Positions 9,573 through 64,000 are shown, counted from the stretch's first letter. The stretch is 64,000 bases of DNA from Gemmatimonadota bacterium (GCA_039586365.1 JBDHKN010000010.1:1-64000), one strand, 5' to 3'. Program-made: numbers and translations. Notes: generated by a model from the letters alone, not told the origin.

Positions 9573-9707
9573 TGCTGTCTTCTCCAGATACTCGGCTCGG
9601 CGCTTGCCACAGCAGGTGTCTCTGCAACAGTACGCGTTCTTTCCCTTGAGCCTCACGCCCCAATCACCCAGCCGTACAATCCTGTGCGGTGACCGGACGG
9701 CGCTGAG

Positions 9708-10157: not shown

Positions 10158-10289
10158 CGTTCACTTCTCTCGCTGCGATTCCCCTGCTCTGTCGACACGC
10201 CCTTCGGCACGAATATCTTTGCTCTTGATCAATCACATCGTACGAGAGGTACGGTGTATGAGAAATCCGGACTTTGCCCTAGGCGTATT

Positions 10290-10303
10290 GCGGTTTGTAC
10301 GTA
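10290..10303 (-). promoter_or_regulatory. TASGTA-N4-CCRY motif copy (TACGTACAAACCGC)
   Basis: Lies in the divergent BON/kinase intergenic region; 13/14 identical to the copies at 13861 and 14007. Confidence 0.55.
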
Positions 10304-10427
10304 TTGATCCCTGATGAAACACTGAATAGTGGTTCCCGAGCTGTGGTGCGAGCTGGGTTTCTGATAGATTGATCAATAGCCGTGACCAGTGGAGTGAGAA
10401 GATCACGTCGCGTTCATTTACGGCCCA

Positions 10428-12279: not shown

Positions 12280-12390
12280 TCCGGAGGTAGCAGGACTTCA
12301 GCGGGAGCTACTGGCTGGGCATTCCAGCTGCGTAGTCTGGCCCTGTCGCAAGGGTGTTATCGCGAGGCGCGTCCAGATTCTATCCGGCAG

Positions 12391-12404
12391 TAGGTACTTA
12401 CCAC
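12391..12404 (+). promoter_or_regulatory. TASGTA-N4-CCRY motif copy (TAGGTACTTACCAC)
   Basis: Intergenic, upstream of the PepSY gene. Confidence 0.45.
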
Positions 12405-12612
12405 TATCCCATCACGTATATCTCCCGATGTTGTCTACGTCGCAATTCCTTCATTGTCCATATGGTGCATATGGCTCGTTACGTGATTCCATGTCGAGTG
12501 CAGTGAGCAGTACCGAACAAGGCCAGTCGAGCGCGCGAGTCCACGCGCCACAGTGGTGGACACCCACAGCGGTTGGCGGAGATCCATGCAAGGAGAGAGG
12601 AGGGCGGGGGTG

Positions 12613-13209
12613 ATGAATGTAGGGAGAAGGCACGTTGTAGCAGCGTTTGTTGTCCTCGGCCTGACACCGGTAGTCTGTGCAGCCCAAGTGCAAACACCCA
12701 TTCCGATTCGCGAACAAACACCAGGTCTACTGGCACAAGCCAAGATCGCACCAGCTGCGGCACGCCTTGCTGCCTATGCTGAGTTTCCGGGAGCCCGGAT
12801 AGTTGCAGCAAGTATTGAACGCCAAGGCCGTTACCTCGGCTACTCCTTTGATCTACAGGTTTCGGGTCACGACGGGCTCGAACATGTGCAGATCGATGCG
12901 GGCAACGGCCAAGTCATCCGCGTAGAGTACACCGTGGAACTGGATAAGGACGGTCGCGTTGTGATGTTGGCACCCTTTGAGCTCATGTCCTTGGCCAGGA
13001 GCACCTTCGTGACAGCCCGTGACAAAGCCTCGGCCACGGTCGAGAATGGGGAGATTGTAGACTGTAAGCTTCGAGTGGAACGAGCGGCTTCGGTATACGT
13101 GTTCGACGTCCGGGTGGGTAACACGGAGGTTTTAGACCGCGTGTTGATCAATGCGTACAACGGAGTGGTTATCTCGGTTCAAGAACTGAGTGATAGGACT
13201 CCACTGTGA
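12613..13209 (+). CDS. Exported PepSY-domain protein (two repeats)
   Basis: Signal peptide, then AKIAPAAARLAA..YSFDL..VQIDAGNGQV and a second repeat ending VYVFDV..VLINAYNGVVI. Confidence 0.75.
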   Translation: MNVGRRHVVAAFVVLGLTPVVCAAQVQTPIPIREQTPGLLAQAKIAPAAARLAAYAEFPGARIVAASIERQGRYLGYSFDLQVSGHDGLEHVQIDAGNGQVIRVEYTVELDKDGRVVMLAPFELMSLARSTFVTARDKASATVENGEIVDCKLRVERAASVYVFDVRVGNTEVLDRVLINAYNGVVISVQELSDRTPL

Positions 13210-13300
13210 CCGAGTCGATGTGAACGCACACAATCCTCCTGGGGATTGGGGCGCTAGGAGTGTTAGCTGACGGTTGGGTTGACAGGCTTGCTGCGCACCC

Positions 13301-13723
13301 TCAACCAGGAATGCGGCCTGTGTCGGCGGTTATCCCCTCTTGCCGGCGTCGCCGCAGACTAGTTTTCACGGCCAACCTCAGTTCATCTGGAGAGAACGGC
13401 TTGGGCAGGAACTCGTCGGCCCCGGCCTTCATCGCCTCGACTGCAATCCCGAGGGTCGGATAGCCGGTCACGACAACAATGGCGACCTGCTGATCATGCT
13501 TGCGGACTTCCGAGATCACTTCTCTACCGCTGAGACTAGGCATTTTCAGATCGACGATGGCGACGTCCGGCGCTGAGGTTGTCATGGCTCGGAGTCCCGC
13601 AACACCATCTGCGAACGTTTCCACGTCGTAGCCCAGTTTCGACAAGATCTGATCACACGAGCTGCGACACACGTCGTTGTTGTCGATCACGACTACCCGC
13701 ACACGTTCGGTCGCTGCGCACAT
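13301..13723 (-). CDS. Single-domain response regulator
   Basis: VVVIDNN, AIVDLKMP, VTGYP and PKPF. ATG 13723 follows GGGGAG. Confidence 0.85.
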   Translation of the reverse strand: MCAATERVRVVVIDNNDVCRSSCDQILSKLGYDVETFADGVAGLRAMTTSAPDVAIVDLKMPSLSGREVISEVRKHDQQVAIVVVTGYPTLGIAVEAMKAGADEFLPKPFSPDELRLAVKTSLRRRRQEGITADTGRIPG

Positions 13724-13860
13724 TTCCGGCTCCCCCGCTGTCAGACGATTGCAGGGCATCTCGAGGTCAGTGACATACCTAACCCGCCATTCGTTTTCCA
13801 TACACAGATGGTAAGGCGCAACCGGAGGACGGGGAATTCGCAGTTGGCCGTACTGGAATC

Positions 13861-13874
13861 GCGGTTTCTACGTA
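13861..13874 (-). promoter_or_regulatory. TASGTA-N4-CCRY motif copy (TACGTAGAAACCGC)
   Basis: Divergent region upstream of the hydrogenase operon. Confidence 0.55.
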
Positions 13875-14006
13875 CAGGCTCCAACTACCCGCAACCCGCC
13901 CACCGATCATATCTCTCACCAGACCAACACAGATCAACCACTCTGTAGCAACCAGGACCGTAGCGGACCGGCCGGCCCGCAGTGCTTGATCCCTCCAAGC
14001 AACGAC

Positions 14007-14020
14007 TACGTACAAACCAC
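14007..14020 (+). promoter_or_regulatory. TASGTA-N4-CCRY motif copy (TACGTACAAACCAC)
   Basis: About 200 bp upstream of the first gene of the hydrogenase operon. Confidence 0.55.
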
Positions 14021-14221
14021 GATGGTTGTAAGGCCAACTGCGCATTTCGCTCGGGTTCTCTTGCTCGTAGCATCTACCCGATAGCTCTGGCCACAAGCGA
14101 AGATGCGTTCAGCAGCAGTGGCCTATGACATCAACAATCCACGAGGTGGCAGATTGCTGTACGTATGTTCGGCTGTGGCGACCTCGGTTGGCTTGACCAG
14201 ACGAACTGGCCCAAACGGGAC

Positions 14222-16204
14222 ATGAGTAGTCGAGACGGTGTGTCCGCAAGCGTCCCCACCGTCTGCCCTTTCTGCGCATGTGGTTGCGGCCTCTATTTGC
14301 AGAAACTGGACGACGAATTGACAGGGGTGATGCCGAGTGAACATCATCCCGTCTCGGAAGGGAGGTTGTGTGCCCGGGGGTGGGCCGCCCACGAGGCGTC
14401 TCTTTGGGGCCCGCGACTCAGCCGCCCTCTTGTCCGGAATCGCGGCACACTAGAACCAACCACGTGGTCGGCTGCCCTGAGTGCTGCCGCAGAGCGTATC
14501 AGCAAGATCGTTGTAGCCGGCAGGTGGATCGGCGTTCTGGGATCGGCACGTGCTACGAACGAAGAGAATTTCCTTGCCGCAAGGCTTGCCAGAGGCGCTC
14601 TCCAGACGAGCCACGTCGACTCCTGCCTACGTGCTCCCTATCAAAGTCTGCTCGGAGGTTATGCGGAACTCGGCTTAGGCTGCAATTTATCGTCGGCGCT
14701 CGCGGACATAGAACAATGTGATGTGATCCTCCTGCACGAGGGTGATCTGGCGCTCACTCACCCTCAGGCTGCCTACGCCATCATGAAGGCTGTACGAAAC
14801 GGATCCCGGTTGGTCACGATGGGAGCCGCGAAGACACGAATGAGTCGCCTAGCCTGGCTGCACATACCGCTGTTTCCAGGCGACGAGCCGATCTTGGCAG
14901 CCACACTTGCGGCAACAGCAGTGAGTGCCAGCTCGGATAACATGGGTGATGTCGACGGTACCGCACACCGCCGACAAGAGCTCGTTCCAAGCGCCCTGCA
15001 CCAGATACCACTGGCAGAATTAGACAGAGCGATTGATTCGTATGCGGCCGCATGCCGTGCCGCAATCTTGCTCGCCCCGACAGGCGCAGCCGCTGCCCGA
15101 CTCCGTGAGATATCCAGTGGTTTCGCCAAGCTTGCAGCTAGCACAGGACACTCGCAGCGTCCTGGATCTGTGTTCTTGCCGCTACCGCTTCGCGCTAACA
15201 GCCGGGGAGCCCTCGAAATGGGAGCGGTGCCTAACCGCTTACCCGGTCTTTGCGCCCTCGATGACGAAGCAGCGCTCGGGCGCTTAGCCCAGGTCTGGGG
15301 CTGTGAGCCGGCGAGCGAACGCGGACTCGACGTCGAGGCGATGCTCGGTGAGGTCAGGGGACTCATCATAGTTGCTGATGACCCACTGGTGGCTCTGCCT
15401 GCTGCTGACAGTGCCCGCGCGGCATTAGCCGAACTGGACTGCCTGGTTGTGCTCGACGCGTTCGTCACACCGACCGTCGAAGCATCCCACGTTGCTCTGC
15501 CCATAACAAGTCCTGCAGAAACAGATGGCACCCTCACCAGCATGGAAGGTAGAGTGCAGTGGCTGCGAGCTTGTACGCCCCCTCCTGTGGAAGCTCGTCC
15601 AGGATGGTTGGTGCTGAGCGAACTTGGTGCAGCGCTTGGGATGCCCAATACCCACCAATCCGTGGACGACATCCTACGTGACATTCGTCGTGCGGTACCA
15701 AGCTATGAAGAGGCACTCTTGCCGCACGAAGGTCATAGGGTGGGTACTGCAGGAATACTACAGGGAATAACCGGATGTCCACGGGGCCGTGCGTTGGTAT
15801 CTGGAGGACTGCGGAGTTCGAATCCGGAGTTAAGGGGTGTATCGACAGCCGGCTCAGCGGACGGGACTGAGTTCCCCTTCCAACTCGTGCGCGCGGGTTC
15901 ATTCGATTGGGGTGACGACCCTCTAGTCAACTACTCACCAACGCTGCGCCGCGATCACTCGTCGCTGAAAAAGCTGTTTCCGGATGGTCTTGTCGAGATG
16001 AGCAGCCAGGACGCGGAACGGCTGGGGATTCGCCATGGCTGGAGCGTGCGAATCAAATCGATCCACGGCGAGACAGTCGTCCCTGTCAGCCTACGGGAGG
16101 ACCTCGACTCGAAGATCCTACTGGTTCCCTTCGCGTTTCGCGGTCACCTGGAGCCAGTGTTGAATAGGGGAGTGATGCAGCGAGTGAAGGTGGAGCGGAT
16201 TTGA
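14222..16204 (+). CDS. Molybdopterin-oxidoreductase-fold protein, FdhF/NuoG-like, probably non-catalytic
   Basis: N-terminal 4Fe-4S motif CPFCACGC..LCARG, SARATNEE, ETDGTLTSMEGRVQ and a C-terminal molydop-binding-like domain. The Sec/Cys-His site reads DSCLRAPY. Confidence 0.88.
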   Translation: MSSRDGVSASVPTVCPFCACGCGLYLQKLDDELTGVMPSEHHPVSEGRLCARGWAAHEASLWGPRLSRPLVRNRGTLEPTTWSAALSAAAERISKIVVAGRWIGVLGSARATNEENFLAARLARGALQTSHVDSCLRAPYQSLLGGYAELGLGCNLSSALADIEQCDVILLHEGDLALTHPQAAYAIMKAVRNGSRLVTMGAAKTRMSRLAWLHIPLFPGDEPILAATLAATAVSASSDNMGDVDGTAHRRQELVPSALHQIPLAELDRAIDSYAAACRAAILLAPTGAAAARLREISSGFAKLAASTGHSQRPGSVFLPLPLRANSRGALEMGAVPNRLPGLCALDDEAALGRLAQVWGCEPASERGLDVEAMLGEVRGLIIVADDPLVALPAADSARAALAELDCLVVLDAFVTPTVEASHVALPITSPAETDGTLTSMEGRVQWLRACTPPPVEARPGWLVLSELGAALGMPNTHQSVDDILRDIRRAVPSYEEALLPHEGHRVGTAGILQGITGCPRGRALVSGGLRSSNPELRGVSTAGSADGTEFPFQLVRAGSFDWGDDPLVNYSPTLRRDHSSLKKLFPDGLVEMSSQDAERLGIRHGWSVRIKSIHGETVVPVSLREDLDSKILLVPFAFRGHLEPVLNRGVMQRVKVERI

Positions 16205-16214
16205 ACGGGAGCCG

Positions 16215-17282
16215 TTGCGGGAACCCGAGATGACACCTGAGGATGCGGTAACCATAGCCAAAGAAGACCTTCCAGAGTGGCTGACCTGGCTTGGCGAGCG
16301 AGCGCAGTTGATCGCGCCCACTTCAGGTCTCGGCGGAGATGTCCTTTTCACCACCATCTCGTCCCCTCAGGAAGTACTGTGGGAATTCGAGAACTCCCTC
16401 CAGCCGCCCAAACAGTTGCTCCTACCGCAAACAGATCCTCTGGTGAAGATCAGCTACGATGCGGGACGATTCCATCCGGAGCCCGTTTACGACGACCGCC
16501 GACGAATAATCTTCAACGTCCGCAACTGTGACGTGAGCGGGTTCCTCTATCTCCATCGAATGCACTCCCGCGACCTCCCCGACCCTTCCTATCTGCGGCG
16601 GGCCGAGAACACGGCGTTCGTCAGCCTTGCTTGCACCCAGCCGTGCCGGTTGGGCTTCTGCGTCTGCTGTGACGCTGGACCGTTCCTGCGAACCGGATTC
16701 GATCTCCAGCTGACCGCAACGAGTGAGCGAATTTTCGTCGATGTCGGGAGCCGCAAGGGACGTTCGCTCACTGATGGCGTAGCAGATCTGTTCCGTTTGG
16801 CCACACCCGACGAAGTGGCGGAACGGCAGCGACTGGAGGCGAGGGCACGTAGTCTCTTCGGAGAGGAGACCTGCCATTTCGGCTCTGCCATGCGCCGCAT
16901 TTCCACGGGGAGGGTGGCGAAGGAATTGTGGGAGACCATGGGTAATTGGTGCCTCGCATGCGGCGGATGCAATTTCGCCTGCCCTACCTGCTATTGCTTC
17001 AGCGTGAAGGACCGCGCGGTCGACGACTCATGGATGAGGTGCCGCATCTGGGACTCCTGCCAATACGCGGCATTCACCCTGGAGGCCTCCGGTCACAACC
17101 CCCGGACGCAGCAGCGCGATCGCATGTGGCGGCGTTTCTTCCACAAGGTGAGCGCCCAGTACTACCAGCGTGACGGGGACGTAGGTTGTGTGGGATGTGG
17201 TCGGTGCATCCAAGTCTGCATGGGTACCACAGACATGCCGGCGGTAGTGGAGGCGATCCGAAAGGGGGAGTGGCATGGATGA
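16215..17282 (+). CDS. 4Fe-4S protein, sulfhydrogenase beta / AsrA family
   Basis: CLACGGCNFACPTCYCF, RIWDSC, ASGHNPR, RRFFHK and CVGCGRCIQVC. Confidence 0.9.
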   Translation: MREPEMTPEDAVTIAKEDLPEWLTWLGERAQLIAPTSGLGGDVLFTTISSPQEVLWEFENSLQPPKQLLLPQTDPLVKISYDAGRFHPEPVYDDRRRIIFNVRNCDVSGFLYLHRMHSRDLPDPSYLRRAENTAFVSLACTQPCRLGFCVCCDAGPFLRTGFDLQLTATSERIFVDVGSRKGRSLTDGVADLFRLATPDEVAERQRLEARARSLFGEETCHFGSAMRRISTGRVAKELWETMGNWCLACGGCNFACPTCYCFSVKDRAVDDSWMRCRIWDSCQYAAFTLEASGHNPRTQQRDRMWRRFFHKVSAQYYQRDGDVGCVGCGRCIQVCMGTTDMPAVVEAIRKGEWHG

Positions 17283-50389: not shown

Positions 50390-50714
50390 CGTGACCTCCC
50401 GACAGTCAGTTTGGGGGATGCCGGTGATGCGGTTCGGCGTGAGGGCGTGCAGGCCCATAGTATTGGTCCGTCGCCGTCGGATCAACTCCATCCCTTGACT
50501 GGGTACTTCTTACTGCTGTTAGACTGAGCTCATCGTCTGTCATTAGGGCGTCCTGCCGTTGTCGGCTAAGACCCATGAACACCGACCGCGACGGTAGTCC
50601 CGGTCAGCGGTGCCGCATGGGTCAGCACTCGTGACAAGAGTGAGGCACGGGCGCAGATTACGAAATGATGCTGGTCTGCGTCGATCGCAGCCTGGGCACG
50701 GAGCGTGTGGCGTA

Positions 50715-52802
50715 GTGCTCTCGACTCGGGTTGCCGCTCTGGCAGGTTGGATCGTGGTGCTCTGCGTGGCCGCAGCCGTCACGGCCACACGACTCAAGGT
50801 GCAGAATCCACGCGGCCTGTGGTCCGTCTCACCGGACCCACCGGCACACCAATACTGGACCTTCGCGCAGCAACAGTTCGGCGACCGCGACGTTCTCCTG
50901 GTGGGAGTTGCCCTACCGGCTGCTGCCGCATCGGCTCTCGAAACGACTGCCGTCGCGCTGCAACATTGGATTCGGGACCAGCCGGAGGTAGCTCAGGTGC
51001 TCGGCATAGAGCAGGTGCAGGCTGTGCAGCGCCGGTTGGGGCCGTTCGGGGGACGGTTGCTGTCGGGGCTGCGGGAGGCGGTGATAGGTCGGGACGGGAC
51101 CACGGCAATGACGTACGTGATTCTGCGCCCACCCACAACCGTGGGAAGTCTGGACGTCCAGGCGTCCTTTGTTGACCGGCTCCGCGGCGAGGCGCCTGGG
51201 CTGCTCCCGACAGGGTACGAGCTGCACGTGGCGGGTCAGCCGGCGATCGACGTTTCGCTGGATCGGCTGTTGCGTGATGACTTCGCTAGGACCGTGCCGC
51301 TTGCCCTAGCTGCGCTGGGACTGGTTCTCGTGCTGCTGATCGGGCGAGAAGGTGTGGCTGCCGTTGTCGCCATGGCCGCGGGGATCGTTGTGCTCCTCGC
51401 GGGGCTGGCCCTGACGCATGTTCCGGTGTCCAGTGCGACGGCGGTAGCTCTTCCTCTTACGGTGGTGGTCGGTATCTCCTATGCTGCCCACGTTGGCCTC
51501 GCTGTCGCGCGGGCGGACGGTGACAGGGCTGCAGTGAAGGAGATCCGGATACCGCTCACGTGGTCGTATGTGACAACGGTGGTGGCAGTGGGAAGTTTCG
51601 TGCTCTCGCCGATTCGGGCACTGCGTTTCTTCGCCGCAGCCTCCGCAGCCGGTCTGTCCATTGCGTTCCTGTCAGCTCTGAGCCTCACCCCTCTCGTTCG
51701 CTTGCGCGGGTCCCGGAGCGGCGCACGACGTGCCCGCCGTCGCCTGACTCGGTTGGGGGTTGCGATCTACCGTGCCGCCGCGAGACGTCAGCGGGTCACG
51801 GTTGGGATCTGGCTCGGTGTGATGATCGTTATCTCGGTGGGCGTCCTGCGCCTTCGATTGGAGTCCAACAGCTACCTTGGCTTCTTTCCCGAAGATCACC
51901 CCATAGCCCGCGCATACCGCGCCGTTGATGCAGCCTTTGGTGGCAGTGTGCCGCTTCATGTCTTGGCGCGCGTGGATTCCGGGTCCGCGTTCCAACAGGA
52001 ACGCGCACGCAGCCGGATTGCGGAGTTCCTCCGTAGTGCAGCTGAGCAACTCGACCTCGGACCCGTGCTGCAGCCGCCTCCGCCGAGGACACTCGGGAGC
52101 GACGAGCATACGCAAGACCTGATGGCTCGCTGGTTTCAGGGTGAGGACGTGCGCTACACCCGCGCCATCTTTACGATACCGATCATGTCGACGCCCGAAG
52201 CCGTTCGGACCATCAACAGTCTGGACAGTCTGGCCCGAGAGCATTCCGACGAAGCAGTGAGCTTGAGTGTGACCGGCTTGCTGCCCGCGTCGATCCCCAT
52301 GCAGCAGATGCTGGTCGGCCTGATGATCAGGTCCCTGGCTCTCCTTGGGGCATTCGTATTCGTCGCGTTTGTCCTTGCCGCCCGGTCGCTCCGCGGGGGA
52401 CTAACCCTCTTGGCGCCCAATCTGATCGCGGTGTTGGCAGTAGTAGGAGTCATGGGATACGTCGGCATCCCTATCGACTTCACGACGGTCAGTGTCACAT
52501 CGCTGGTCCTGGGAGTGGCAGTCGATGACACCCTGCAGCTCACTTGGGCCGGGCGCGAAGCCGCAGGCGGTCGCCAGTACCTTGCAAGCCGTGCGGTGCG
52601 GCGGACTGCGGCCCCGGTGCTGCTTGGATCGATTGCCATGATTGTGGGTGCCGCGACACTCACGGCGTCGCAGTTCCCACCGACCAGTCAGCTCGGTGGC
52701 TTGCTCGCGCTGGGCCTCGCCGTGGCCCTGGCTGCAGATCTTACGCTAACGCCGCTCTTGATCGCCAGGTGGGCGGGGCGCCATCGAGTGGCCCCACGAT
52801 AG
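50715..52802 (+). CDS. MMPL/RND-superfamily exporter (start uncertain)
   Basis: Two repeats of (TM, periplasmic loop, TM bundle), with VAGQP, VGISYAAH, PNL, LGVAVDDT and S.FPP...G. Confidence 0.85.
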   Translation: MLSTRVAALAGWIVVLCVAAAVTATRLKVQNPRGLWSVSPDPPAHQYWTFAQQQFGDRDVLLVGVALPAAAASALETTAVALQHWIRDQPEVAQVLGIEQVQAVQRRLGPFGGRLLSGLREAVIGRDGTTAMTYVILRPPTTVGSLDVQASFVDRLRGEAPGLLPTGYELHVAGQPAIDVSLDRLLRDDFARTVPLALAALGLVLVLLIGREGVAAVVAMAAGIVVLLAGLALTHVPVSSATAVALPLTVVVGISYAAHVGLAVARADGDRAAVKEIRIPLTWSYVTTVVAVGSFVLSPIRALRFFAAASAAGLSIAFLSALSLTPLVRLRGSRSGARRARRRLTRLGVAIYRAAARRQRVTVGIWLGVMIVISVGVLRLRLESNSYLGFFPEDHPIARAYRAVDAAFGGSVPLHVLARVDSGSAFQQERARSRIAEFLRSAAEQLDLGPVLQPPPPRTLGSDEHTQDLMARWFQGEDVRYTRAIFTIPIMSTPEAVRTINSLDSLAREHSDEAVSLSVTGLLPASIPMQQMLVGLMIRSLALLGAFVFVAFVLAARSLRGGLTLLAPNLIAVLAVVGVMGYVGIPIDFTTVSVTSLVLGVAVDDTLQLTWAGREAAGGRQYLASRAVRRTAAPVLLGSIAMIVGAATLTASQFPPTSQLGGLLALGLAVALAADLTLTPLLIARWAGRHRVAPR

Positions 52803-52953: not shown

Positions 52954-53697
52954 ATGCACGTGGAGCAATCTGCTTCAGTATCCATCTGCTACGGCGGTGC
53001 AGCGAGGCCGCCGAGACCTGAGCCACTCTGGGAGTTCCTCTCCCCGTACGAGCTGAGCGGGCTGAGTGCCGTGCCGGCAAGGAAGAGGCGTGACTGGCTG
53101 TCGGGGCGTATTGCCTTGAAGCACGCTTACCTATCGCTCACGGGACAGCTGGCCGCAATGCCCCCGAGCCAGGTCGAAGTCCGAAACGGTCCTTCCGGGT
53201 CTCCCCATATCCCGAGTGCACCCGATTTACTCTGTTCGATAACCCACAGCCACGGCTGGGGTGCCGGTGCTGCGTCCACCGAGCCGGTCGGCGTGGACAT
53301 CGAGCCGCTCGGGCGACACGGCACTCGAACCTGCGAGCTGGTGGCGACCGGAGAGGAAGTCGAGCGTCTCAGGGAGGCCGGTGTGCGTCCGACTGCGATC
53401 GGTGGCACACTGTGGGCCATCAAGGAAGCGGTGCTCAAAGCCGTTGGGCTGGGACTGCGTGTCCCCGCCGCGCGAGCAAAGCTGGTCAGGCCGCAACGAG
53501 ACTCCTGGGAAGTGGTGCTCGCGCATCCCGGGTGCGTCACGAGCCGGTGGTCAGTCTGGACCGCCACTGTTGCCGGGTTCGCCCTGGCACTGGCCCGTCC
53601 CGCGCACTCCAATCGCGAGATCCACTGGAGAATGGCAATCTCATCGGACTGGGGCGAGGCCGGCTGGAGAGCGGGCGCATGGCGCGTGTCCTGGTAA
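52954..53697 (+). CDS. Sfp-type 4'-phosphopantetheinyl transferase
   Basis: WLSGRIALK, SITHS, VGVDIE and WAIKEAVLKAVGLGL. Confidence 0.9.
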   Translation: MHVEQSASVSICYGGAARPPRPEPLWEFLSPYELSGLSAVPARKRRDWLSGRIALKHAYLSLTGQLAAMPPSQVEVRNGPSGSPHIPSAPDLLCSITHSHGWGAGAASTEPVGVDIEPLGRHGTRTCELVATGEEVERLREAGVRPTAIGGTLWAIKEAVLKAVGLGLRVPAARAKLVRPQRDSWEVVLAHPGCVTSRWSVWTATVAGFALALARPAHSNREIHWRMAISSDWGEAGWRAGAWRVSW

Positions 53698-54668
53698 CCG
53701 GTGGCTCGGGTTTCGTCGGCCGTTCCCTCATCGAAGCACTGCTCGGTCAGGGACACCGTGTCTGGTGTGTGAGCCGGTCAAGGCCGATTGTGGATTCGCC
53801 GTCTGAGAACCTCGAATGGGTCCGGTCGGATCTGGGCAACGGGCGCACCTATGCGGAAACGATCGCCAGGGCCGATTGCATCTTCCACCTTGCGAGCTTG
53901 CTCATAGCCCGACGCAGATCAGAGTACATCAGCGTCAACGTTGCAGGAACGCAGGCTCTCCTCGACACGTGCCACCGCGCTGGCCAACACATCCGTCGCT
54001 TCGTGTACATGAGTAGCATCGCTGCCATGGGTCCGACCGACGACGGATCCCTACTCACAGAGTCTACTCCCTGTCGGCCCCGCACCCAATACGGGGCCAG
54101 CAAGCTCGCAGCTGAGCACATCGTGTGTGAGAACGCCGCGGAGTTCCCGGCGGTTATCCTGCGCCCAGCGTTCATCTACGGGCCACGAGACGTGCGGGGT
54201 GCAGTCTTCCTGCGTGAGCTGTTGGGTACCAGGCGGAGCCCGAGTCGGCTCACGATCAGAACGCTCAGCTTCTGTCATGTCTCCGACGTAGTCCGTGCCT
54301 GTCTCTGTGCGCTCGAATCCGAGAGCCCGGACGGGCGGGTGTATCTGATTGCGGAGCCGCAGTCGTACAAGTGGATTGAAGTGGACGAAATATTGGAGCG
54401 CTCACTGAGCAAGCTAGTGGTGAGTTGCGAGTCGTCTGAGGCGGAAATGGCGCGGCTTCTCTTGGATCGCGTACGAGCCGTGGCTAATGAGCATAGCAGC
54501 GCAATCGACGGTGAACACTGGGGATGCGACACGCACCGGGCAGCGAGCGAATTGGGATTCGAGGCGCATCGCTCCCTCGATGAGGCCGCGGGTGAGGTAA
54601 TTGAGTCCTATCTGAAAGATGGGCTTCTGCTGACGCCTGAGAAGGCCGGAGCAGGACCGGAGGTCTGA
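53679..54668 (+). CDS. NAD-dependent epimerase/dehydratase (extended SDR)
   Basis: VLVTGGSGFVG, IFHLA, NVAGT, SSIAA, YGASK and LRP..IYGPRD. Confidence 0.9.
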   Translation: MARVLVTGGSGFVGRSLIEALLGQGHRVWCVSRSRPIVDSPSENLEWVRSDLGNGRTYAETIARADCIFHLASLLIARRRSEYISVNVAGTQALLDTCHRAGQHIRRFVYMSSIAAMGPTDDGSLLTESTPCRPRTQYGASKLAAEHIVCENAAEFPAVILRPAFIYGPRDVRGAVFLRELLGTRRSPSRLTIRTLSFCHVSDVVRACLCALESESPDGRVYLIAEPQSYKWIEVDEILERSLSKLVVSCESSEAEMARLLLDRVRAVANEHSSAIDGEHWGCDTHRAASELGFEAHRSLDEAAGEVIESYLKDGLLLTPEKAGAGPEV

Positions 54669-54956: not shown

Positions 54957-56276
54957 ATGCGTATCCTGCTGATCGATCCGGTGACCACGGCCAAGATGGT
55001 GCCGGTTGGCGAGCGGCGCAAGCTGCGACAAGGTATCGGGTACCCTGGGCTCGGACTGCTGACGGTTGCCGCACTGACACCGCGTGAACACGAAGTTCGC
55101 GTAATCGACGAGTCGGTGGAGCCCATCCCGGACGACTTCGACCCCGACCTCGTGGGCATCTCTGTGCAGGCCCCGACGGCCCCGTACGCCTACGAGCTGG
55201 CTGCCGGTTTCCGAAACCGTGGCGTCCCGGTCGTGCTCGGTGGGATTCACGTGTCACTCAATCCAGCAGAGGCACACGGTCACGCGGACGCCATCGTGAT
55301 CGGAGAGGCGGAACTCACCTGGCAGCAGCTGCTCGAGGACCTCCGTGGTGGTGCTCTCAGAGCCGAGTACCCTGCCACTGGCCTGGCCGACGTAGATGCC
55401 TCGCCGATTCCACGGCGCGACTTGTTGCGCCACGGAGATTATCAGATCCCACATGTCGTCCAGGCGAGCAAGGGGTGCCCCTTCGGCTGTGAGTTCTGCT
55501 CGCTCTATTCGTACTTGGGGCATACACCTCGGTTCCGGCGGATTAGTCGAGTGATCGAGGAGATTCGGGGGATACCGGGCGACGCCATTCTGTTCGCCGA
55601 TGACAACATCTACGCGCGCAAGCAATACGCTTGGGATCTCTTCCGGGCCCTTGAGACTGTCGAGAAACGGTGGATAGCGGAGTCGACCTGGCACATCGCG
55701 TTCGACGCTGAGGCTCTGACGCGCGCTAAGGAGAGCGGGTGTGCCGGTCTGTTCGTCGGGTTCGACTCGATCAACCTCCAGCCGAACATCCGCAAGGTGC
55801 CGCGTTCCGGAAGTGTCGAGGAGACATATGTGGAGGCTATGCAGAGGATTCTCGACCAACGTATAGCGGTTGTGGCGGCCTTCGTGTTCGGACTCGACAG
55901 CGATGACCCGAGCGTGTTCGAGCGGTCGTTCGAAGTCGTGCGGCAGGGCGGAGCGAATCTGGTCAACTTCAGCGTCCTGGTCCCGTACCCGGGCACTCCG
56001 GTCTTCCACCGCCTGAAACGGGAAGATCGGATCACTGAGTGGGACTGGGCGAAATACGTAAGCCCGAGTGTGTGCTTCGAGCCGAAGCAGATGACGGCCG
56101 AGCAGCTCTCTGATGGTACTCGCTGGGCTCAACAGCAGTTCTACTCGCTCGCTCACGTTGTCAGAAACGCCGTTCGGGCGAGCCTGCAACTCGGCTGGGG
56201 TATGGGGCTGCTGTCCCTGAGACTCAACTGGGCTCAGCGCTGTAACTGGGGGCAAGGCAGTGCACGGCACGACTGA
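54957..56276 (+). CDS. B12-binding radical SAM protein
   Basis: N-terminal cobalamin-binding domain (GLLTVAALTP, DLVGIS, VVLGGIH, GEAE), KGCPFGCEFC, FADDN and PYPGT. Confidence 0.92.
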   Translation: MRILLIDPVTTAKMVPVGERRKLRQGIGYPGLGLLTVAALTPREHEVRVIDESVEPIPDDFDPDLVGISVQAPTAPYAYELAAGFRNRGVPVVLGGIHVSLNPAEAHGHADAIVIGEAELTWQQLLEDLRGGALRAEYPATGLADVDASPIPRRDLLRHGDYQIPHVVQASKGCPFGCEFCSLYSYLGHTPRFRRISRVIEEIRGIPGDAILFADDNIYARKQYAWDLFRALETVEKRWIAESTWHIAFDAEALTRAKESGCAGLFVGFDSINLQPNIRKVPRSGSVEETYVEAMQRILDQRIAVVAAFVFGLDSDDPSVFERSFEVVRQGGANLVNFSVLVPYPGTPVFHRLKREDRITEWDWAKYVSPSVCFEPKQMTAEQLSDGTRWAQQQFYSLAHVVRNAVRASLQLGWGMGLLSLRLNWAQRCNWGQGSARHD

Positions 56277-57318
56277 CTCGAACGACGGGATCCGGTGTCT
56301 AGTCTGGGACCTGGACAACACGCTGTGGAGCGGGACTATCCTGGAGGCGGACCGCTGCAGGCTGCGCCCTGGTGTGCGGCGGGTGCTCGCCGAACTGGAC
56401 CGGCGCGGGATCCTGCTCTCAATCGCGAGTGCGAATGATCCGGACACGGCACTCACGACACTGCGGCGTAAGGGCCTCGCCGGTTACTTCCTCCACCCGC
56501 AGGTGGGATGGCACAGCAAGGTCTGGAGCATACAGCAGATCGCCGACAAGCTGGGCGTCGGGCTCGACACGATCGGGTTCATTGATGATGAGCCATTCGA
56601 GCGAGAGCAGGTGTGCCACCTTCTTCCGGGGGTCCGCACCTACGCCGCCGGAGCGTCCCGCTCGCTGCTGGAACTGCCGGAATTCAAACCACCGATCCTG
56701 ACGCACGAATCGAGAGAGCGACGGCACAAGTACCTGCAGGCGGTAGAGCGGGAGGCCGCTGCCGAGTCGAGTCACATGAGCCGTCAGGAGTTTCTCGACT
56801 ACTGCCGCACCACGCTCACGCTGCGGGCGGCAGTGCCGGACGACTTGCCTCGTATCGTCGAGTTGATGCGGCGGACGCACAAGCTGAACTCGACCGGCGT
56901 CGTGTACGGTGAGGACGAGGTTGCTGTGTGGCTGAGCGCTGGGACGCGGCGCGTCCATGTTGCTCAACTGGCAGACCGGTTCGTGGATTACGGGCGAGTA
57001 GGCGTCGCGGTCAGCCGGACTACATCCGACTCCTGGGAGCTGACGGATTTCCTGATGTCATGCCGCGTGCTGGCACGGGGCATCACGGGGTACTTCATCG
57101 CCTGGCTGGGTGGGGAGGCTTGCCGTGCAGGTGCGTCGCGAATCAGTTCCCGTTACCGACCGAGCGGTCGCAACCACAGGCTGGAAACGCTCTACAAGCT
57201 TGCCGGATTCAAGCCCAAGAAACGGTACCGGGACGGGGCTGTCCTTTATGAGAAGCGAACCAGCGAGGCGCCACCCCCTCCGAGTTGGCTGACCGTGAAG
57301 CAAGGGAGCGAACCGTGA
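56260..57318 (+). CDS. fkbH: FkbH-like HAD-IIIC glyceryl transferase/phosphatase
   Basis: VWDLDNTLW.G, SIAS.N, FIDD.PFER, RT..LN.TG, DRF.DYG and LMSCRV. Confidence 0.92.
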   Translation: MHGTTDSNDGIRCLVWDLDNTLWSGTILEADRCRLRPGVRRVLAELDRRGILLSIASANDPDTALTTLRRKGLAGYFLHPQVGWHSKVWSIQQIADKLGVGLDTIGFIDDEPFEREQVCHLLPGVRTYAAGASRSLLELPEFKPPILTHESRERRHKYLQAVEREAAAESSHMSRQEFLDYCRTTLTLRAAVPDDLPRIVELMRRTHKLNSTGVVYGEDEVAVWLSAGTRRVHVAQLADRFVDYGRVGVAVSRTTSDSWELTDFLMSCRVLARGITGYFIAWLGGEACRAGASRISSRYRPSGRNHRLETLYKLAGFKPKKRYRDGAVLYEKRTSEAPPPPSWLTVKQGSEP

Positions 57319-59761: not shown

Positions 59762-61612
59762 ATGGTCATTCTGGGCGTGAGCGGATTCGAGGAACGCGAC
59801 GGACGCGGCTTTGCACATCCATACGCTCATGCGCAGCCAGAATCTCCCTGTCCGTCGAGTTCCGCGGGCTCTCCAGTGCCACTGCGGTTTTTCCCTCTGC
59901 AACTGTTCGGGCACGATCATGCGGCCGCGTTGCTCGTCGACGGTGAGTTGGTGGCGTGTGCTGCCGAGGAGCGGTTCACCCGGATCAAGCACGGTTTCAA
60001 TCTGGCGGGCAGGACCGTGTTACCGCGGCGAGCGATGCGGTACTGCCTCGATGAGGCGGGCCTGGACTGGAGGGACGTCGACTACTGGGCGCACTACTGC
60101 CACTTCAACAGCGAAGGTGTGGCGTTTCGGCTGGAGAATGTCACACGACATCTCGGGTCTTCCGACCGCGAGATGATAGCGGATGAGTACGAGCGCGCAT
60201 ACCGGAATCGGGTCGCTCCCGAACTGGTGCGGACTCAGCTGGAGATGATCGCTGGCGTCTCGATACCCGAGGACCGTTTCATCCCGGTACCGCACCACCT
60301 GGCGCATGCTGCCGGGGCGTTTCACTCTGCGGGATTCGCAGAGTCTGCATGGCTTGTACTCGATGGCTATGGGGAGACCGACAGTTCGACTTGGGGACTG
60401 GGTACAGCCGATGGTCTCCGCGCGACGGGATCTACGCCGCTGCCGACGTCGCTGGGCGTGCTATATCAGATCATATCGTTTTATCTCGGATTCCGGGCGT
60501 TCGGCGACGAGTACAAGGTCATGGGGATGTCGGCGTACGGTGATCCGCGCTGCTACCGAGCGGTCTTCGACGAACTGGTGCAGGTCCGACCGGAGGGAGC
60601 CTTCGATACGACGGGCCTGACCCAGCCCGGGTTCGCTGAGCTGCTGACAGAGCGCATCGGTGAGATCCCTCGACCGGGCGCATACACCTGCAAGGCTGCC
60701 GACGTAGCGGCGGCGCTACAGACCAGGGTCGAAGAAGTGGTGCTGCACGTCGTCACACATCTGCGTGACAGGTTCGGACTCGGGCAGCTCTGCATATCCG
60801 GAGGTGTGGGGCTCAACGCGTGCGCGAACGGCGCTGTGGTGAGATCGGGCCTGATCGACCGGGTCTTCGTGCAACCGGCGGCGTCTGATGACGGGGCCAG
60901 CCTCGGGGCTGCGACATACGTCCACCACCATCTGACCGGAGCGCGACCGGTTCCGATCTATCACACGTACTGGGGGCCGTCGTATGACGACGAGAGAATC
61001 CGCGAGGCACTGGAGAGTGCCAGCGGGCTGCGGTGGGAGAAGAGGTGTGATGCGGAACGGGAAGCTGCCCGGCTTCTCGCTGACGACAAGATCGTGGGCT
61101 GGTTCCAGGGACGCATGGAAGTCGGTCCCCGCGCGCTCGGATCAAGGAGTATCCTCGCCAGCCCTCGCTCGATCGAGACGCGGGACGAAATCAATGCGCG
61201 TGTGAAGGGAAGAGAACCCTTCCGGCCGTTCGCGCCGAGCGTGCTCGATGACAACGCCTCAACCTACTTCGATCTGCCTGACCGTACGGCTGCTCCGTTC
61301 ATGGTCGTGACGTTCGAGACCCGCGAGTCCGTTCGCAAAGAGATTCCCGGCGTCGTGCATGTCGACGGATCTGCGCGCGTACAGACCGTCAGCAAGAAAG
61401 ACAACCCACGGTACTATAGATTGCTGCATCAGTTTGCTGTTCTCACCGGATTACCGGTTCTCTTGAATACCTCGTTCAACCGCGCCGGCGAACCCATCGT
61501 CTGCTCACCGGATGACGCGGTTAGGTGCTTTCTCGCAAGTGGCCTCGACGCACTCGTGATCGGTGACTACGTGGCTGTTCCCGAAAACGGGGTGAGAGGA
61601 GAGCGACGGTGA
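59762..61612 (+). CDS. NodU/CmcH-family O-carbamoyltransferase
   Basis: HDHAAAL, EERFTRIKH, HHLAHA, EYKVMG, GPRALG.RS, K.RE.FRPFAP, HVDGSARVQ and LNTSFN. Confidence 0.94.
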   Translation: MVILGVSGFEERDGRGFAHPYAHAQPESPCPSSSAGSPVPLRFFPLQLFGHDHAAALLVDGELVACAAEERFTRIKHGFNLAGRTVLPRRAMRYCLDEAGLDWRDVDYWAHYCHFNSEGVAFRLENVTRHLGSSDREMIADEYERAYRNRVAPELVRTQLEMIAGVSIPEDRFIPVPHHLAHAAGAFHSAGFAESAWLVLDGYGETDSSTWGLGTADGLRATGSTPLPTSLGVLYQIISFYLGFRAFGDEYKVMGMSAYGDPRCYRAVFDELVQVRPEGAFDTTGLTQPGFAELLTERIGEIPRPGAYTCKAADVAAALQTRVEEVVLHVVTHLRDRFGLGQLCISGGVGLNACANGAVVRSGLIDRVFVQPAASDDGASLGAATYVHHHLTGARPVPIYHTYWGPSYDDERIREALESASGLRWEKRCDAEREAARLLADDKIVGWFQGRMEVGPRALGSRSILASPRSIETRDEINARVKGREPFRPFAPSVLDDNASTYFDLPDRTAAPFMVVTFETRESVRKEIPGVVHVDGSARVQTVSKKDNPRYYRLLHQFAVLTGLPVLLNTSFNRAGEPIVCSPDDAVRCFLASGLDALVIGDYVAVPENGVRGERR

Positions 61613-64000
61613 GTGGCCGCACCGTTGACGTGGCGCTCGACATCGGGTCGTCGAGCGTGAAAGCCCTCGCTGAGACTGGTGGCGGGAAAGTCGTGGCGCA
61701 ACTCTACCGGCCTATTCGGGGTCAGTTGGACGCCACTCTGATCTCGCTCCTCGACCACCTTGCCTCCATCGTGCCGCCGCACCGTTGCATAGTCACGGCC
61801 TTCACGGGCTCGAGCGCGCGGCCATACGCCGAAGCTCTCGGCATCCCCGAAGTAAACGACATTGTCGCGGTGTACCGCGGAGTGCAGCGCCTCGGCTTGA
61901 GCGCCGGAGCGATTCTCGAGATCGGCGGTGAGCACTCCAAGTTTGTGCGGCTGAGTCCCGCACCGACCAACGGCAGACGGACCCTGCGGGATTTCCAGGT
62001 GAACTCCGTGTGTTCGGCAGGTACGGGGGCTTTTCTTGAGCAGGAGGCTCACCGTCTCGACTTGTCGATTGATGAGTTCAGCGAGCACGCGTGCTCAGCG
62101 AGACATGCCATCAAGGTCGCGGGGCGGTGTGCCGTCTTCGCGAAGACCGACATCGTCCACCGACATCAGACCGGCGTACCGGTGGAGGACATAGCCTACT
62201 CGCTGTGCCAAGCCATCGCCCGCCACGTCGCGGCCGAGCTTATCCGGGGACGGCAGTTCGATGTGCCCGTAGTGTTTGTCGGCGGTGTCGCGTCCAACAC
62301 CGGAATGCAGCGCGCGTTGCGCGAAGTGCTGCAACTGGATGACGGCGGGTTGGAGGTACCGGCGCTACACGTCTTCGCCGATGCACTTGGCGCGCTGGAG
62401 GTGGTTCGTTGCGAAGCTGCGAGTCCCGGGCGGGATCTCCAGTGTCTGACAGAGCTGGTGGGGCGCAGGTTGAGCGAGCGTACGAATGCGCCGCGGAAGC
62501 GACCGTCGCTGGCGGCGTTAACGGCAGGTTTACCGGCGGCTCCACGGGTGAAAGGCAGGGCGGGCGGGAGAGTCCGGCCGGGGGGCATGCTGGGCATCGA
62601 CATCGGGTCGACCAGCACGAATGCCGCATACCTCTCAGCATACGGGGAGGTCCAGGACTACATCACCGTCCCGACTCGCGGCCGTGTGCTCGCGGCGGCC
62701 CACACGTGTCTTGGGGAACTCGAGGGACGCTGCCGTGACTTTGAACCTGCGGCCGTCGGAGTCACAGGATCGGGTCGTAGGCTGGTGGCGGAGATGCTGA
62801 GCGCTGACTTGGCCGTTGACGAAATCACGGCTCATGCGGCTGGCGGCCTGCAATACGTGCCGCACGCACGGACGATCTTCGACATCGGCGGACAGGACTC
62901 GAAGTTCATTCAGCTAAGCGACGGTGGAGTGGTGGGTTTTGAGATGAATAAGGTCTGCGCTGCCGGGACGGGGTCGTTCATCGAGGAGATGGCCGAGCTG
63001 CTCGGTCTTGCCATTATCGGTGAGTTTGCGGATGAGGCGCTGCGCTCAGAGGCACCGGTGGAGCTGGGAGAACGCTGCACGGTGTTCATGGGGTCGGAGC
63101 TGGCGCGTCGGCTGCAGGAAGGGTGTTCTCGCCAGGATCTGGCGGCAGGCCTGTGCTACGCGGTCGTGCACAACTACCTGTCGCGAGTCGTGGGTAGGCA
63201 TCGAGTAGGCCGTCCAGTGGTGTTCCAGGGTGGTGTGGCCAACAACGAAGCAGTCGTGGCGGCGCTGGAAAACGTGCTGCAGCACGAAGTCCAGGTTCAT
63301 CCGTTCAACGAGATCGCCGGCGCAATTGGGGCGGCACTGCTCGCGGCGCGAAACAAGGGGGGGATACCGTCGAGCTTTCGCGGCGCTATGACCATCGATC
63401 CCGAGTCGATCCGCTCGAGCTATTTCGACTGTCAGCGCTGCGCCAATCAGTGCACGATCCATCTGACGAGGAGCGGTGTCGGGAAGAAGTTCTTCTCGGG
63501 AGGGCTGTGCGATCGCTTCGATGGGCGCACGGCGGAACGAGGGCAGCGGATCAGTGTCGTGACCGACTTCTTCGCCGATCGGGAGCAGCTGCTGCGCCAG
63601 TGGTTGCAGCCGGCACCGAACGGTGCAGCAGCCGAGTTGGGGATTCCCATGGCACTGCTGCAGCACGATATGCTGCCCTACTGGAGCGTCTTCCTCAACC
63701 GACTCGGCATATCGTACCAACTGTCGTGGCCTACGACTCGACAGACGATGGAAGCAGGTGCCGGCTCGAGTTACGCCAACACCTGCCTGCCACTCAAGGT
63801 GGCATACGGCCACTGCGCGGAACTGATCGATCGAGGATCAAACCGCCTTCTGCTCCCATCGGTCGCGAATCTCGGCAGCCGCACCGTCAACGAGCGACTC
63901 GATCACCTGTGTCCGGCTGTGCAGGCGTGGCCGTTCACTGCCAAGGCGATCTTCGGTTCTGACGTCGAGTTCCTGACGCCACGGATCAGGTTCTCAATTC
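61609..64000 (+). CDS. Multidomain acyl-CoA dehydratase activase (two BadF/BadG ASKHA ATPase domains plus a downstream dehydratase/reductase-like domain), PlsA/Ger-like; runs off the window
   Basis: Missing from the ORF track because it has no stop in the window. Manual translation from GTG 61609: ALDIGSSSVK, EIGGEHSK, CSAGTGAFLE, AGRCAVFAK, LGIDIGSTS, DEITAH, DIGGQDSK, MNKVCAAGTGSF, GERCTVF, CQRCANQC, LGIPMAL, CLPLK. Confidence 0.9.
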   Translation, partial: MSGRTVDVALDIGSSSVKALAETGGGKVVAQLYRPIRGQLDATLISLLDHLASIVPPHRCIVTAFTGSSARPYAEALGIPEVNDIVAVYRGVQRLGLSAGAILEIGGEHSKFVRLSPAPTNGRRTLRDFQVNSVCSAGTGAFLEQEAHRLDLSIDEFSEHACSARHAIKVAGRCAVFAKTDIVHRHQTGVPVEDIAYSLCQAIARHVAAELIRGRQFDVPVVFVGGVASNTGMQRALREVLQLDDGGLEVPALHVFADALGALEVVRCEAASPGRDLQCLTELVGRRLSERTNAPRKRPSLAALTAGLPAAPRVKGRAGGRVRPGGMLGIDIGSTSTNAAYLSAYGEVQDYITVPTRGRVLAAAHTCLGELEGRCRDFEPAAVGVTGSGRRLVAEMLSADLAVDEITAHAAGGLQYVPHARTIFDIGGQDSKFIQLSDGGVVGFEMNKVCAAGTGSFIEEMAELLGLAIIGEFADEALRSEAPVELGERCTVFMGSELARRLQEGCSRQDLAAGLCYAVVHNYLSRVVGRHRVGRPVVFQGGVANNEAVVAALENVLQHEVQVHPFNEIAGAIGAALLAARNKGGIPSSFRGAMTIDPESIRSSYFDCQRCANQCTIHLTRSGVGKKFFSGGLCDRFDGRTAERGQRISVVTDFFADREQLLRQWLQPAPNGAAAELGIPMALLQHDMLPYWSVFLNRLGISYQLSWPTTRQTMEAGAGSSYANTCLPLKVAYGHCAELIDRGSNRLLLPSVANLGSRTVNERLDHLCPAVQAWPFTAKAIFGSDVEFLTPRIRFSI

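Follow-up and report, generated by a model that had tools for sequence, protein, structure and literature searches.

A separate branch of the PlsA/Ger reductase family in a conserved glycerate-carrier gene cassette likely helps make a membrane lipid not yet described

We found that the gene running off the end of the analyzed DNA codes for a reductase from a branch of its own within the fused PlsA/PlsR-Ger family, and that members of this branch are embedded, wherever the neighboring genes are readable, in a conserved set of genes predicted to load a carrier protein with glycerate and modify it. Judged from gene content and conservation, the enzyme probably takes part in the synthesis of a still undescribed membrane lipid. 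The window, i.e., the whole stretch of DNA analyzed, comprises 64,000 nucleotides from a Gemmatimonadota bacterium (C118:1-64000), and the parent contig of 71,834 bases supplies the rest of the cassette (Table 1), a gene set undescribed in the literature searched.

Table 1. Genes of the cassette in the window and on the remainder of contig C118.
Feature	Coordinates	Strand	Remark
MMPL/RND-type membrane transporter	50610..52802	+	close orthologs downstream of cassette in loci L034, L037, L039
4'-phosphopantetheinyl transferase	52954..53697	+	in 4/13 branch loci
Extended SDR, epimerase/3-beta-HSD/HpnA-like	53676..54668	+	candidate release reductase (inferred)
Acyl carrier protein (ACP), 90 aa	54669..54941	+	Ser46 invariant in 10 cassette copies
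B12-binding radical SAM enzyme 1, 439 aa	54957..56276	+	
Stand-alone FkbH, predicted glyceryl-ACP loader	56260..57318	+	TIGR01686 229 bits, cut-off 146.65
B12-binding radical SAM enzyme 2, about 504 aa	57315..58829	+	start deduced from lengths of homologs
Class I SAM-dependent methyltransferase, 309 aa	58826..59755	+	
O-carbamoyltransferase (NovN/GdmN/TobZ family), 616 aa	59762..61612	+	coupled to reductase
Fused PlsA/PlsR-Ger family reductase, first 797 codons	61609..64000	+	gene end C118:65820
YegS-family lipid kinase	C118 65798-66700	+	beyond window
CDP-alcohol phosphotransferase, closest to phosphatidylinositol-phosphate synthases	C118 66697-67527	+	beyond window
PTO1314/HpnH-like radical SAM	C118 67531-68604	+	beyond window
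PAP2_3 membrane protein	C118 68601-69314	+	beyond window

The first-pass annotation had reported a long open frame at the window edge, translationally coupled to the carbamoyltransferase and carrying two ASKHA activase domains, a CxxCxNxC motif and a further domain; all of these features are real. The GTG-started forward-strand frame has no stop before the window edge and is completed on the contig (C118:61609-65820) with a product of 1403 aa; its start, preceded by GGAGAG, overlaps the stop of the carbamoyltransferase gene by 4 nt (GTGA). The first activase domain displays CSAGTG and RCAVF motifs (cysteines C135 and C174) and the second CAAGTG and RCTVF (C450 and C490), followed in order by a CxxCxxxC linker (CQRCANQC, residues 608-615), DUF2229 (residues 677-890), which is the further domain of the earlier description, and a second reductase/dehydratase half. 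In profile searches, two PF01869 domains followed by PF09989 make up the "BBD" core that, according to the consulted part of PMC13159169, is retained in all alkyl-ether producers; PF06050, listed for several branch members, gave no score on this reductase in the Pfam search. The predicted model of the C-terminal half (741 residues, pLDDT 90.9) has BzdNO, HadBC and DCCP as its best structural matches (10-15% identity), and on this model the half is a benzoyl-CoA reductase/2-hydroxyacyl-CoA dehydratase-like fold. Across the alignment, 15 cysteines are kept in more than 90% of the proteins of either set (42 from the branch, 103 background) and are candidate iron-sulfur ligands. No full-length structure of the family occurs among the PDB sequence matches.

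By Pfam layout, predicted fold and trees, the protein is a fused member of the PlsA/PlsR-Ger family, as the first-pass annotation had proposed, and not an HgdC/YjiL-type catabolic activase, a candidate ruled out by the two-activase/DUF2229 layout together with the domain tree. In that tree, four single-domain rows (YjiL and BCR subunits) split from 42 PlsA/Ger-type domains (SH-aLRT 99), with both activase domains of the reductase falling among the latter; the grouping with catabolic activases that would have spoken against the annotation was not seen. Its statement that the architecture is common to dehydratase activators and to PlsA/Ger stands for PlsA/Ger, which share the two activases and DUF2229, but not for the solved dehydratase/reductase activators matched by the protein, which are single-domain proteins of 243-276 aa. 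The true single-domain activases of this genome are located on another contig (C57). In the consulted part of PMC13274423, Ger and PlsA are described as not distinguishable from sequence, and the only activities reported for the family among the descriptions consulted are ester-to-ether conversions on glycerolipids.

Within the family, the 45 branch rows of the tree fall together in a single clade (FastTree support 1.0, stem 0.56), and identity to the reductase is 42-90% within the branch versus 35-38% for the next matches; the trees were computed without the characterized Ger proteins (T. maritima, D. alkenivorans) and without C. perfringens PlsA. Comparison of the 42 branch with the 103 background proteins yielded 68 positions that are branch-specific and conserved. 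The branch further displays two cysteines in addition to the 15 of the family, the motifs TxxERLxHxCP and YTNWTARLHC, and changes at residues that are near-invariant in the ordinary copies (F727L, Y770A, A963/D964 to E/F, F1086L and P1342V); as read from the alignment, these substitutions show a presumably altered function, without indicating its direction. Among the Zixibacteria, 123 of 201 genomes have a family match, of which two carry a cassette copy, and both also retain an ordinary copy. This coexistence, along with the 68 branch positions and the retention of the 15 cysteines, suggests a dedicated role for the cassette copy.

The core of the cassette has the order SDR-ACP-B12 radical SAM-FkbH-B12 radical SAM-methyltransferase-carbamoyltransferase-reductase, after which the lipid kinase, the CDP-alcohol phosphotransferase and the HpnH-like radical SAM enzyme usually come, and this order is the same across records labeled Gemmatimonadota, Zixibacteria and Fibrobacteraceae. 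A carbamoyltransferase lies directly upstream of the reductase in 12/12 branch loci with upstream DNA versus 0/95 other family loci, and FkbH is found nearby in 9/9 branch loci with enough flank versus 0/62, though these counts are not independent, as the branch loci are kin from few lineages. In a sample of 301 genomes of the class, cassette-type FkbH is found in three genomes (four copies), which are also the ones with the cassette-type reductase, and none of the 43 genomes with FkbH is among the other nine that have a family member. Thus, the link to fkbH and the ACP on which the earlier reading had hinged is borne out, both around the loci and across genomes. The same counts largely refute the idea that an ordinary Ger/PlsA or catabolic activase has by chance come to lie beside an unrelated carrier-protein cluster. 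We consider this very improbable, given a separate clade with the same gene order in all three lineages and a coexisting ordinary copy, the lack of any carbamoyltransferase, FkbH or ACP neighbor in 111 other family loci, and the lack of grouping with YjiL/BCR activases. What speaks for it is that no second DUF2229 gene was found beside the reductase in its own genome (86% complete), nor in genomes G498 and G499 (T. maritima being positive as the control of this search), so that it could double as a general ether-forming enzyme.

Other signals of linkage are less direct. For 19/46 branch proteins versus 0/73 background proteins, the longest contig is equal in size to that of close relatives of the B12 radical SAM enzyme, an indirect indication. 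The distances between cassette genes correlate over 8-9 loci (Spearman 0.73-0.95), which fits joint inheritance and is no evidence of coevolution because kin share distances. The close relatives of B12 radical SAM enzyme 2 (at least 55% identity) stand apart from a second tier, for which most values are 44-48%. In a search for cassettes lacking the reductase, relatives of the second-tier protein P0202 were absent from viral contigs; its 35-43% matches occur in 16/401 genomes from the phylum of genome G496, where the 20 short loci contain other radical SAM genes and no other core cassette gene, and its plasmid match sits in a heptose/LPS-type cluster.

In FkbH, the sole copy found in the genome, D17, D19 and C268 are invariant across nine cassette copies, and both domains of the O-carbamoyltransferase have their conserved His/Asp and adenylation-site motifs. 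The best solved-structure matches of the SDR are sugar epimerases, and it scores far below the cut-off of the thioester-reductase model (63 versus 213 bits); the SDR, the methyltransferase and the third radical SAM enzyme have only generic relatives in the PDB, Atlas and plasmid searches. A hopanoid side-chain cluster, to which weak matches to Hpn models had pointed, was rejected, the 86%-complete genome having no match to TIGR01507 (squalene-hopene cyclase) and HpnH, HpnJ, HpnN and all other Hpn models falling far below cut-off, as was a membrane-spanning (Tes-type) lipid pathway, for which the best Tes match reaches 78 against a cut-off of 450 bits.

The lipid kinase and CDP-alcohol phosphotransferase downstream favor a phospholipid as the end product and allow the simpler reading that the enzyme acts on a finished lipid. 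We tentatively propose, at a little short of an even chance, that the reductase forms ethers from the acyl esters of a special phospholipid with a head group of predicted glyceryl-ACP origin. Following the chemistry known for each family, FkbH would load glycerate from 1,3-bisphosphoglycerate on the ACP; the two B12 radical SAM enzymes, methyltransferase and carbamoyltransferase would convert it to a methylated, O-carbamoylated unit; the SDR would release this unit as an alcohol; the kinase would phosphorylate the alcohol or a lipid intermediate, which the PIP-synthase-like enzyme would join to CDP-diacylglycerol; the reductase, supplied with ATP-driven single electrons by its two activase domains, would reduce a lipid ester to an alkyl or vinyl ether; and the MMPL protein would move the product. 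No lipid with such a head group was found in the literature searched. An N-glyceroyl alkylamine lipid was rejected as the product, the cassette being without an aminotransferase; judged by title and the start of the abstract, none of the papers listed for that lipid deals with its genes.

The linkage of the reductase is tighter to the FkbH-ACP core, never missing where the flank allowed, than to the lipid genes: in the 11 branch loci with downstream DNA, the phosphotransferase is present in 10, the kinase in six and PAP2 in none. At locus L042, kinase and phosphotransferase are both missing from the vicinity; the best phosphotransferase match in its genome (G498, completeness not given) is 60 bits versus 130-250 in the other four genomes. 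With the tighter core linkage, the kinase absent from 5/11 loci and L042 lacking both lipid genes, a role on the carrier fits at least as well. A reading with somewhat less than an even chance is that a PlsA/Ger-lineage enzyme was recruited into a carrier assembly line to act on glyceryl-S-ACP or its ester, by ether formation or radical dehydration, and that with the three radical SAM enzymes and carbamoyltransferase it constitutes a new bacterial ether-lipid route in Gemmatimonadota and Zixibacteria, leading to an ether phospholipid that is carbamoylated and carries methyl groups on its backbone or head.

In its ether-forming version, the first of two mechanisms inferred in the first-pass annotation and one that we judge unlikely, glyceryl-S-ACP would be acylated, the tethered ester converted to an ether, the alkylglycerol freed by the SDR, and an ether phospholipid finished by the kinase and phosphotransferase; if true, the pathway would parallel, under anaerobic conditions, the Elb route of myxobacteria. 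The invariant linkage to FkbH and ACP and the two branch-specific motifs are consistent with it, as is the preference of YegS-type kinases for lipids over small polyols. The acyltransferase it needs is of PlsC-like type directly beside only 2/13 loci, heading both cassettes of a single genome (G287), with a weak PlsC-like match in G389 some 7 kb upstream and none in the window's own operon; moreover, the two hydroxyls concerned are the ones that the carbamoyltransferase and methyltransferase would also need.

Likewise improbable is a reading that takes up the second mechanism of the annotation, in which glyceryl-S-ACP, perhaps after 3-O-carbamoylation or methylation, would be dehydrated or deoxygenated by radical chemistry in the manner of 2-hydroxyacyl-CoA dehydratases. 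Here, the enoyl or 2-deoxy product would be elaborated by the radical SAM enzymes, one of which is HpnH-like (found in 5/5 cassette genomes tested) and would be able to add to alkenes: the consulted part of PMC13459092 describes HpnH as adding an adenosyl radical to a terminal alkene. Glyceryl-S-ACP is itself a 2-hydroxyacyl thioester, the catalytic half has the HadBC/BzdNO fold, and the linkage to carrier genes is invariant; against this, the protein lies inside the PlsA/Ger lineage by sequence and tree, with only 10-15% identity to the dehydratases, and no thioester substrate is reported for that lineage in the portions of the literature consulted. Less probable still is ether formation in the reverse sense, with the ACP-borne glycerate passed as an ester to a lipid or polyol hydroxyl and then reduced, so that the head group would be joined as a glyceryl ether. 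This would account for a dedicated ester reductase accompanying FkbH even in genomes that have an ordinary copy, and it draws on the ester-to-ether chemistry known for the family, but the core genes include no glycerate-moving transferase (KAS III, MBOAT or similar).

PlsA/Ger homologs are taken, in the sources consulted, as a sign of ordinary ether-lipid capacity; the branch indicates that the family has at least one specialized form wired to a natural-product-style carrier pathway. The cassette offers a compact 14-gene expressible unit, predicts an undescribed anaerobic lipid that bears a carbamoyl group and modifications introduced by radical chemistry, and might provide a soluble, ACP-linked substrate for mechanistic work on the reductase family. 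As the branched tetraether lipids of anoxic waters and sediments are without a firm producer in the consulted part of PMC13274423, it is also a candidate source of orphan ether lipids, tied to no particular one.

Among known systems, Ger (T. maritima Tmari_0479 and Desulfatibacillum alkenivorans; consulted part of PMC13159169) has the same two activases, DUF2229 and further reductase/dehydratase parts in one polypeptide, and Pfam, fold, tree and shared cysteines place the branch in the Ger-type family. The branch differs in its specific positions and extra cysteines, which set it apart from the ordinary family members, the characterized Ger lying outside the tree; in its FkbH-ACP-carbamoyltransferase neighborhood wherever the flank is readable; and in being additional to the ordinary copy in Zixibacteria. 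PlsA/PlsR (Clostridium perfringens, with single-gene forms in facultative anaerobes) has the same fused domain set and activase cysteine motifs. The Listeria, Fusobacterium, Acetoanaerobium and Collinsella homologs, which we label PlsA-type from their layout and the consulted part of PMC9702350, form a separate clade with which the reductase does not group (25-28% identity to the branch), and three of the four have DExxNLGA where the branch has DEHSEFxG. HgdC, HadI and YjiL, with HadBC, BzdNO and DCCP, share the ASKHA activase domains and the catalytic-half fold, but as separate single-domain activators and catalytic subunits on the other side of the domain tree, at 10-15% identity in the catalytic part.

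The FkbH glyceryl-ACP systems (methoxymalonyl-ACP routes and, in the consulted part of PMC8609519, aeruginosin-type glycerate loading modules) have in common with the cassette an FkbH above cut-off, a dedicated ACP, a phosphopantetheinyl transferase and a methyltransferase. The next-closest FkbH genes of the class adjoin NRPS/PKS or acyl-CoA dehydrogenase genes, whereas the cassette has no acyl-CoA dehydrogenase, 3-hydroxyacyl dehydrogenase, PKS or NRPS, and a methoxy/hydroxymalonyl-ACP or NRPS/PKS role of its FkbH was rejected. The elb cluster of myxobacteria uses carrier-protein logic. Its genes elbB-E are described, in the sources consulted, as a biosynthetic cluster linked to bacterial ether lipids; in contrast to them, the cassette is without an adenylation domain or a conserved acyltransferase, and has instead a PlsA/Ger enzyme, which is oxygen-sensitive, along with three or four enzymes of the radical SAM type.

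The reductase is a real and complete gene: it starts with a GTG codon in a 4-base overlap with the carbamoyltransferase stop, stays open at the window end and completes on the contig (71,834 bases in length, with the window as its opening 64,000), giving a product of 1403 aa that holds every motif the first-pass annotation had named in this open frame. Pfam recovers two BcrAD_BadFG domains and a DUF2229 domain (residues 677–890), and this is the sole DUF2229 gene found in the window's genome (86% complete), which is placed in the same family as G389, the Gemmatimonadota-titled genome carrying locus L039. Ger is defined by a pair of activase domains together with DUF2229, while its C-terminal regions vary (PMC13159169). 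A structure model of residues 655–1395, built from 98 sequences, reached a mean pLDDT of 90.9; among PDB structures it best matches those of BzdNO, 2-hydroxyisocaproyl-CoA dehydratase and the double-cubane protein, with 10–15% identity and low TM-scores (0.26–0.30 over the query). When activase domains were placed individually in a tree, 42/42 domains of the fused or PlsA-like type (21 proteins) separated (SH-aLRT 99) from the single-domain activases, namely YjiL of E. coli, one from Azoarcus and two encoded in the window's genome. The named references in our trees are plasmid-collection records, four of them apparently PlsA-type, and the proteins characterised from T. maritima, D. alkenivorans and C. 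perfringens are absent. Domain layout, model fold and tree split therefore identify the reductase as a fused PlsA/PlsR–Ger family member rather than a catabolic activase, in line with the PlsA/Ger likeness noted at first pass. The single-domain activases of the window's genome are encoded by two genes and are probably of the benzoyl-CoA reductase type, which fits anaerobic growth.

Within the PlsA/Ger family, the reductase and its close relatives form a new variant. Among the best 120 homologs, 46 besides the query score at least 1145 bits (42–90% identity), and the remainder at most 991 bits (35–38%). We built a family tree of 104 proteins over their N-terminal 985 residues, taking in each of the 42 branch proteins available at full length, three loci of the branch, one background match in five and a selection of loci. 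Its 45 branch rows form a single clade (FastTree support 1.0, stem 0.56), sister to the ordinary type with moderate support (0.89), and the Firmicutes-type homologs lie apart. The 15 cysteines shared with 103 ordinary proteins are all retained in the 42 branch proteins, which carry two more, C1214 and C1253. A further 68 positions are conserved specifically in the branch, including TxxERLxHxCP, YTNWTARLHC and DEHSEF where ordinary copies read DEHSAD. A pattern scan for GDGPCRLGQ also found a very distant, long-branched group (L057–L068) of frames mostly 1570–1600 aa long, from records titled Smithella, Syntrophaceae or Leptospirales.

The reductase is embedded in a conserved cassette. In the window's genome, 14 co-directional genes, the majority touching or overlapping, encode in order an MMPL transporter, PPTase, SDR, ACP, B12 radical SAM 1, FkbH, B12 radical SAM 2, methyltransferase, carbamoyltransferase, reductase, lipid kinase, CDP-alcohol phosphotransferase, radical SAM 3 and a PAP2 protein. 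Scanning contigs from genomes and metagenomes yielded, among the matches listed, at least 13 branch loci (L034–L045, L073), titled Gemmatimonadota, Zixibacteria, Fibrobacteraceae or Akkermansiaceae, plus one metagenome contig; the listed metagenome matches were mostly ordinary members. The carbamoyltransferase lies immediately upstream of the reductase in all 12 branch loci with upstream DNA, and FkbH occurs in 9/9 with at least 5 kb upstream (three are too short), these loci being kin, two from one genome, and their counts not independent trials. In contrast, among 111 other family loci, none of the 95 whose upstream flank reaches 1 kb has the carbamoyltransferase and none of the 62 with 6 kb or more has FkbH or ACP, bearing out the previously suggested link to fkbH and ACP. 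Downstream, the phosphotransferase is present in 10/11 branch loci, the kinase in 6/11 and PAP2 in 0/11.

Several neighbours vary (table below). In G287, which has two full cassettes, a hydrolase of the metallo-beta-lactamase fold and a PlsC-like acyltransferase stand at the head of each. In six branch loci (L034, L035, L036, L039, L040, L045) a fourth radical SAM gene follows, with distant similarity to the third; no close copy was found in the window's genome. Radical SAM 3 is linked as a pair with the SDR, the pair also heading the cassette in L042, and the two may act one after the other.

Locations of the reductase gene and of further features
Feature	Location	Positions	Strand	Remark
Reductase gene	C118, the window's contig	61609–65820	+	ends past window
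Hydrolase and acyltransferase	L035 (G287)	375–1762		cassette head
Hydrolase and acyltransferase	L036 (G287)	424–1823		cassette head
Similar hydrolase	L043, Zixibacteria locus	15792–16628		3' of phosphotransferase
Fourth radical SAM gene	L039	18990–19976		
Radical SAM 3/SDR pair	L250 (G497)	8731–10987		apart from cassette
Radical SAM 3/SDR pair	L251 (G1006)	9694–15675		cassette head
Small membrane protein	L001, beyond window	9292–9750	-	weak PAP2 match; faces operon end
Two more carbamoyltransferase genes	G000:C110, window's genome	628–7646		by SDR-like DNA; probably surface-sugar cluster
Two single-domain activase genes	G000:C57, window's genome	628–2183		

Co-occurrence across genomes agrees with this locus linkage. 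A single sample of 301 genomes from the class contained 12 with a family match and 43 with FkbH (the latter counting G018, which is marked unpublished); FkbH of the close type (at least 53%) was limited to three genomes (four copies), the same ones holding the branch reductase, and 0/9 of the remaining family-positive genomes had FkbH. The cassette is rare: it was found in 2/401 phylum genomes when traced by its B12 radical SAM, the window's genome counted; in 2/201 genomes sampled from Zixibacteria, the seed among them; and, in the phylum of G498, a stricter first look returned the seed alone among 201 genomes. Both cassette-bearing Zixibacteria hold an additional ordinary copy without cassette genes nearby. 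Family matches, nearly all ordinary, occur in 123/201 genomes of this uncultured phylum (that of G497), which suggests that ether lipids are common there. One locus (L040, G182:C322) is titled Akkermansiaceae yet placed in the class of the window's genome with Gemmatimonadota-titled records, so it may be mistitled.

FkbH scores above its cut-off with D17, D19 and C268 kept, the cassette ACP serine is invariant, and carbamoyltransferase residues 47–605 align with NovN and GdmN, motifs intact. The natural reading of this set would be a glycerate unit carried on the ACP, then methylated and carbamoylated. The phosphotransferase's closest relatives are phosphatidylinositol-phosphate synthases, enzymes that couple polyol phosphates with CDP-diacylglycerol. 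We tentatively favour, at somewhat less than even confidence, a route in which the ACP line would build a head group from a modified polyol and the SDR would set it free, kinase and phosphotransferase would assemble a phospholipid, and the dedicated reductase would convert its ester to an ether, because each enzyme keeps its known chemistry. However, the reductase always accompanies the FkbH–ACP core while the lipid genes vary, no close phosphotransferase was found in G498, and no clear thioester-reductase signature was seen in the SDR; three rivals therefore stand. Ether formation on the carrier, as first proposed, appears unlikely, since no acyltransferase is conserved. Radical dehydration of glyceryl-ACP by the reductase, likewise proposed at first pass, agrees with the modelled fold of its catalytic half and with an HpnH-like partner in 5/5 genomes tested, and is about as unlikely; a glyceryl ether made by reducing a glycerate ester is less likely still. 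The cassette predicts an undescribed lipid, probably carbamoylated and ether-linked.

Searches covering few subscription journals found no description of such a cassette (FkbH with carbamoyltransferase, radical SAM and lipid, or with acyl carrier protein and membrane lipid). The FkbH–carbamoyltransferase work found concerns suomilide, an unrelated NRPS cluster. The DUF2229 literature found comprises the Ger work besides unrelated material, and the tree data of the Ger paper may list members of the present branch as plain Ger homologs.
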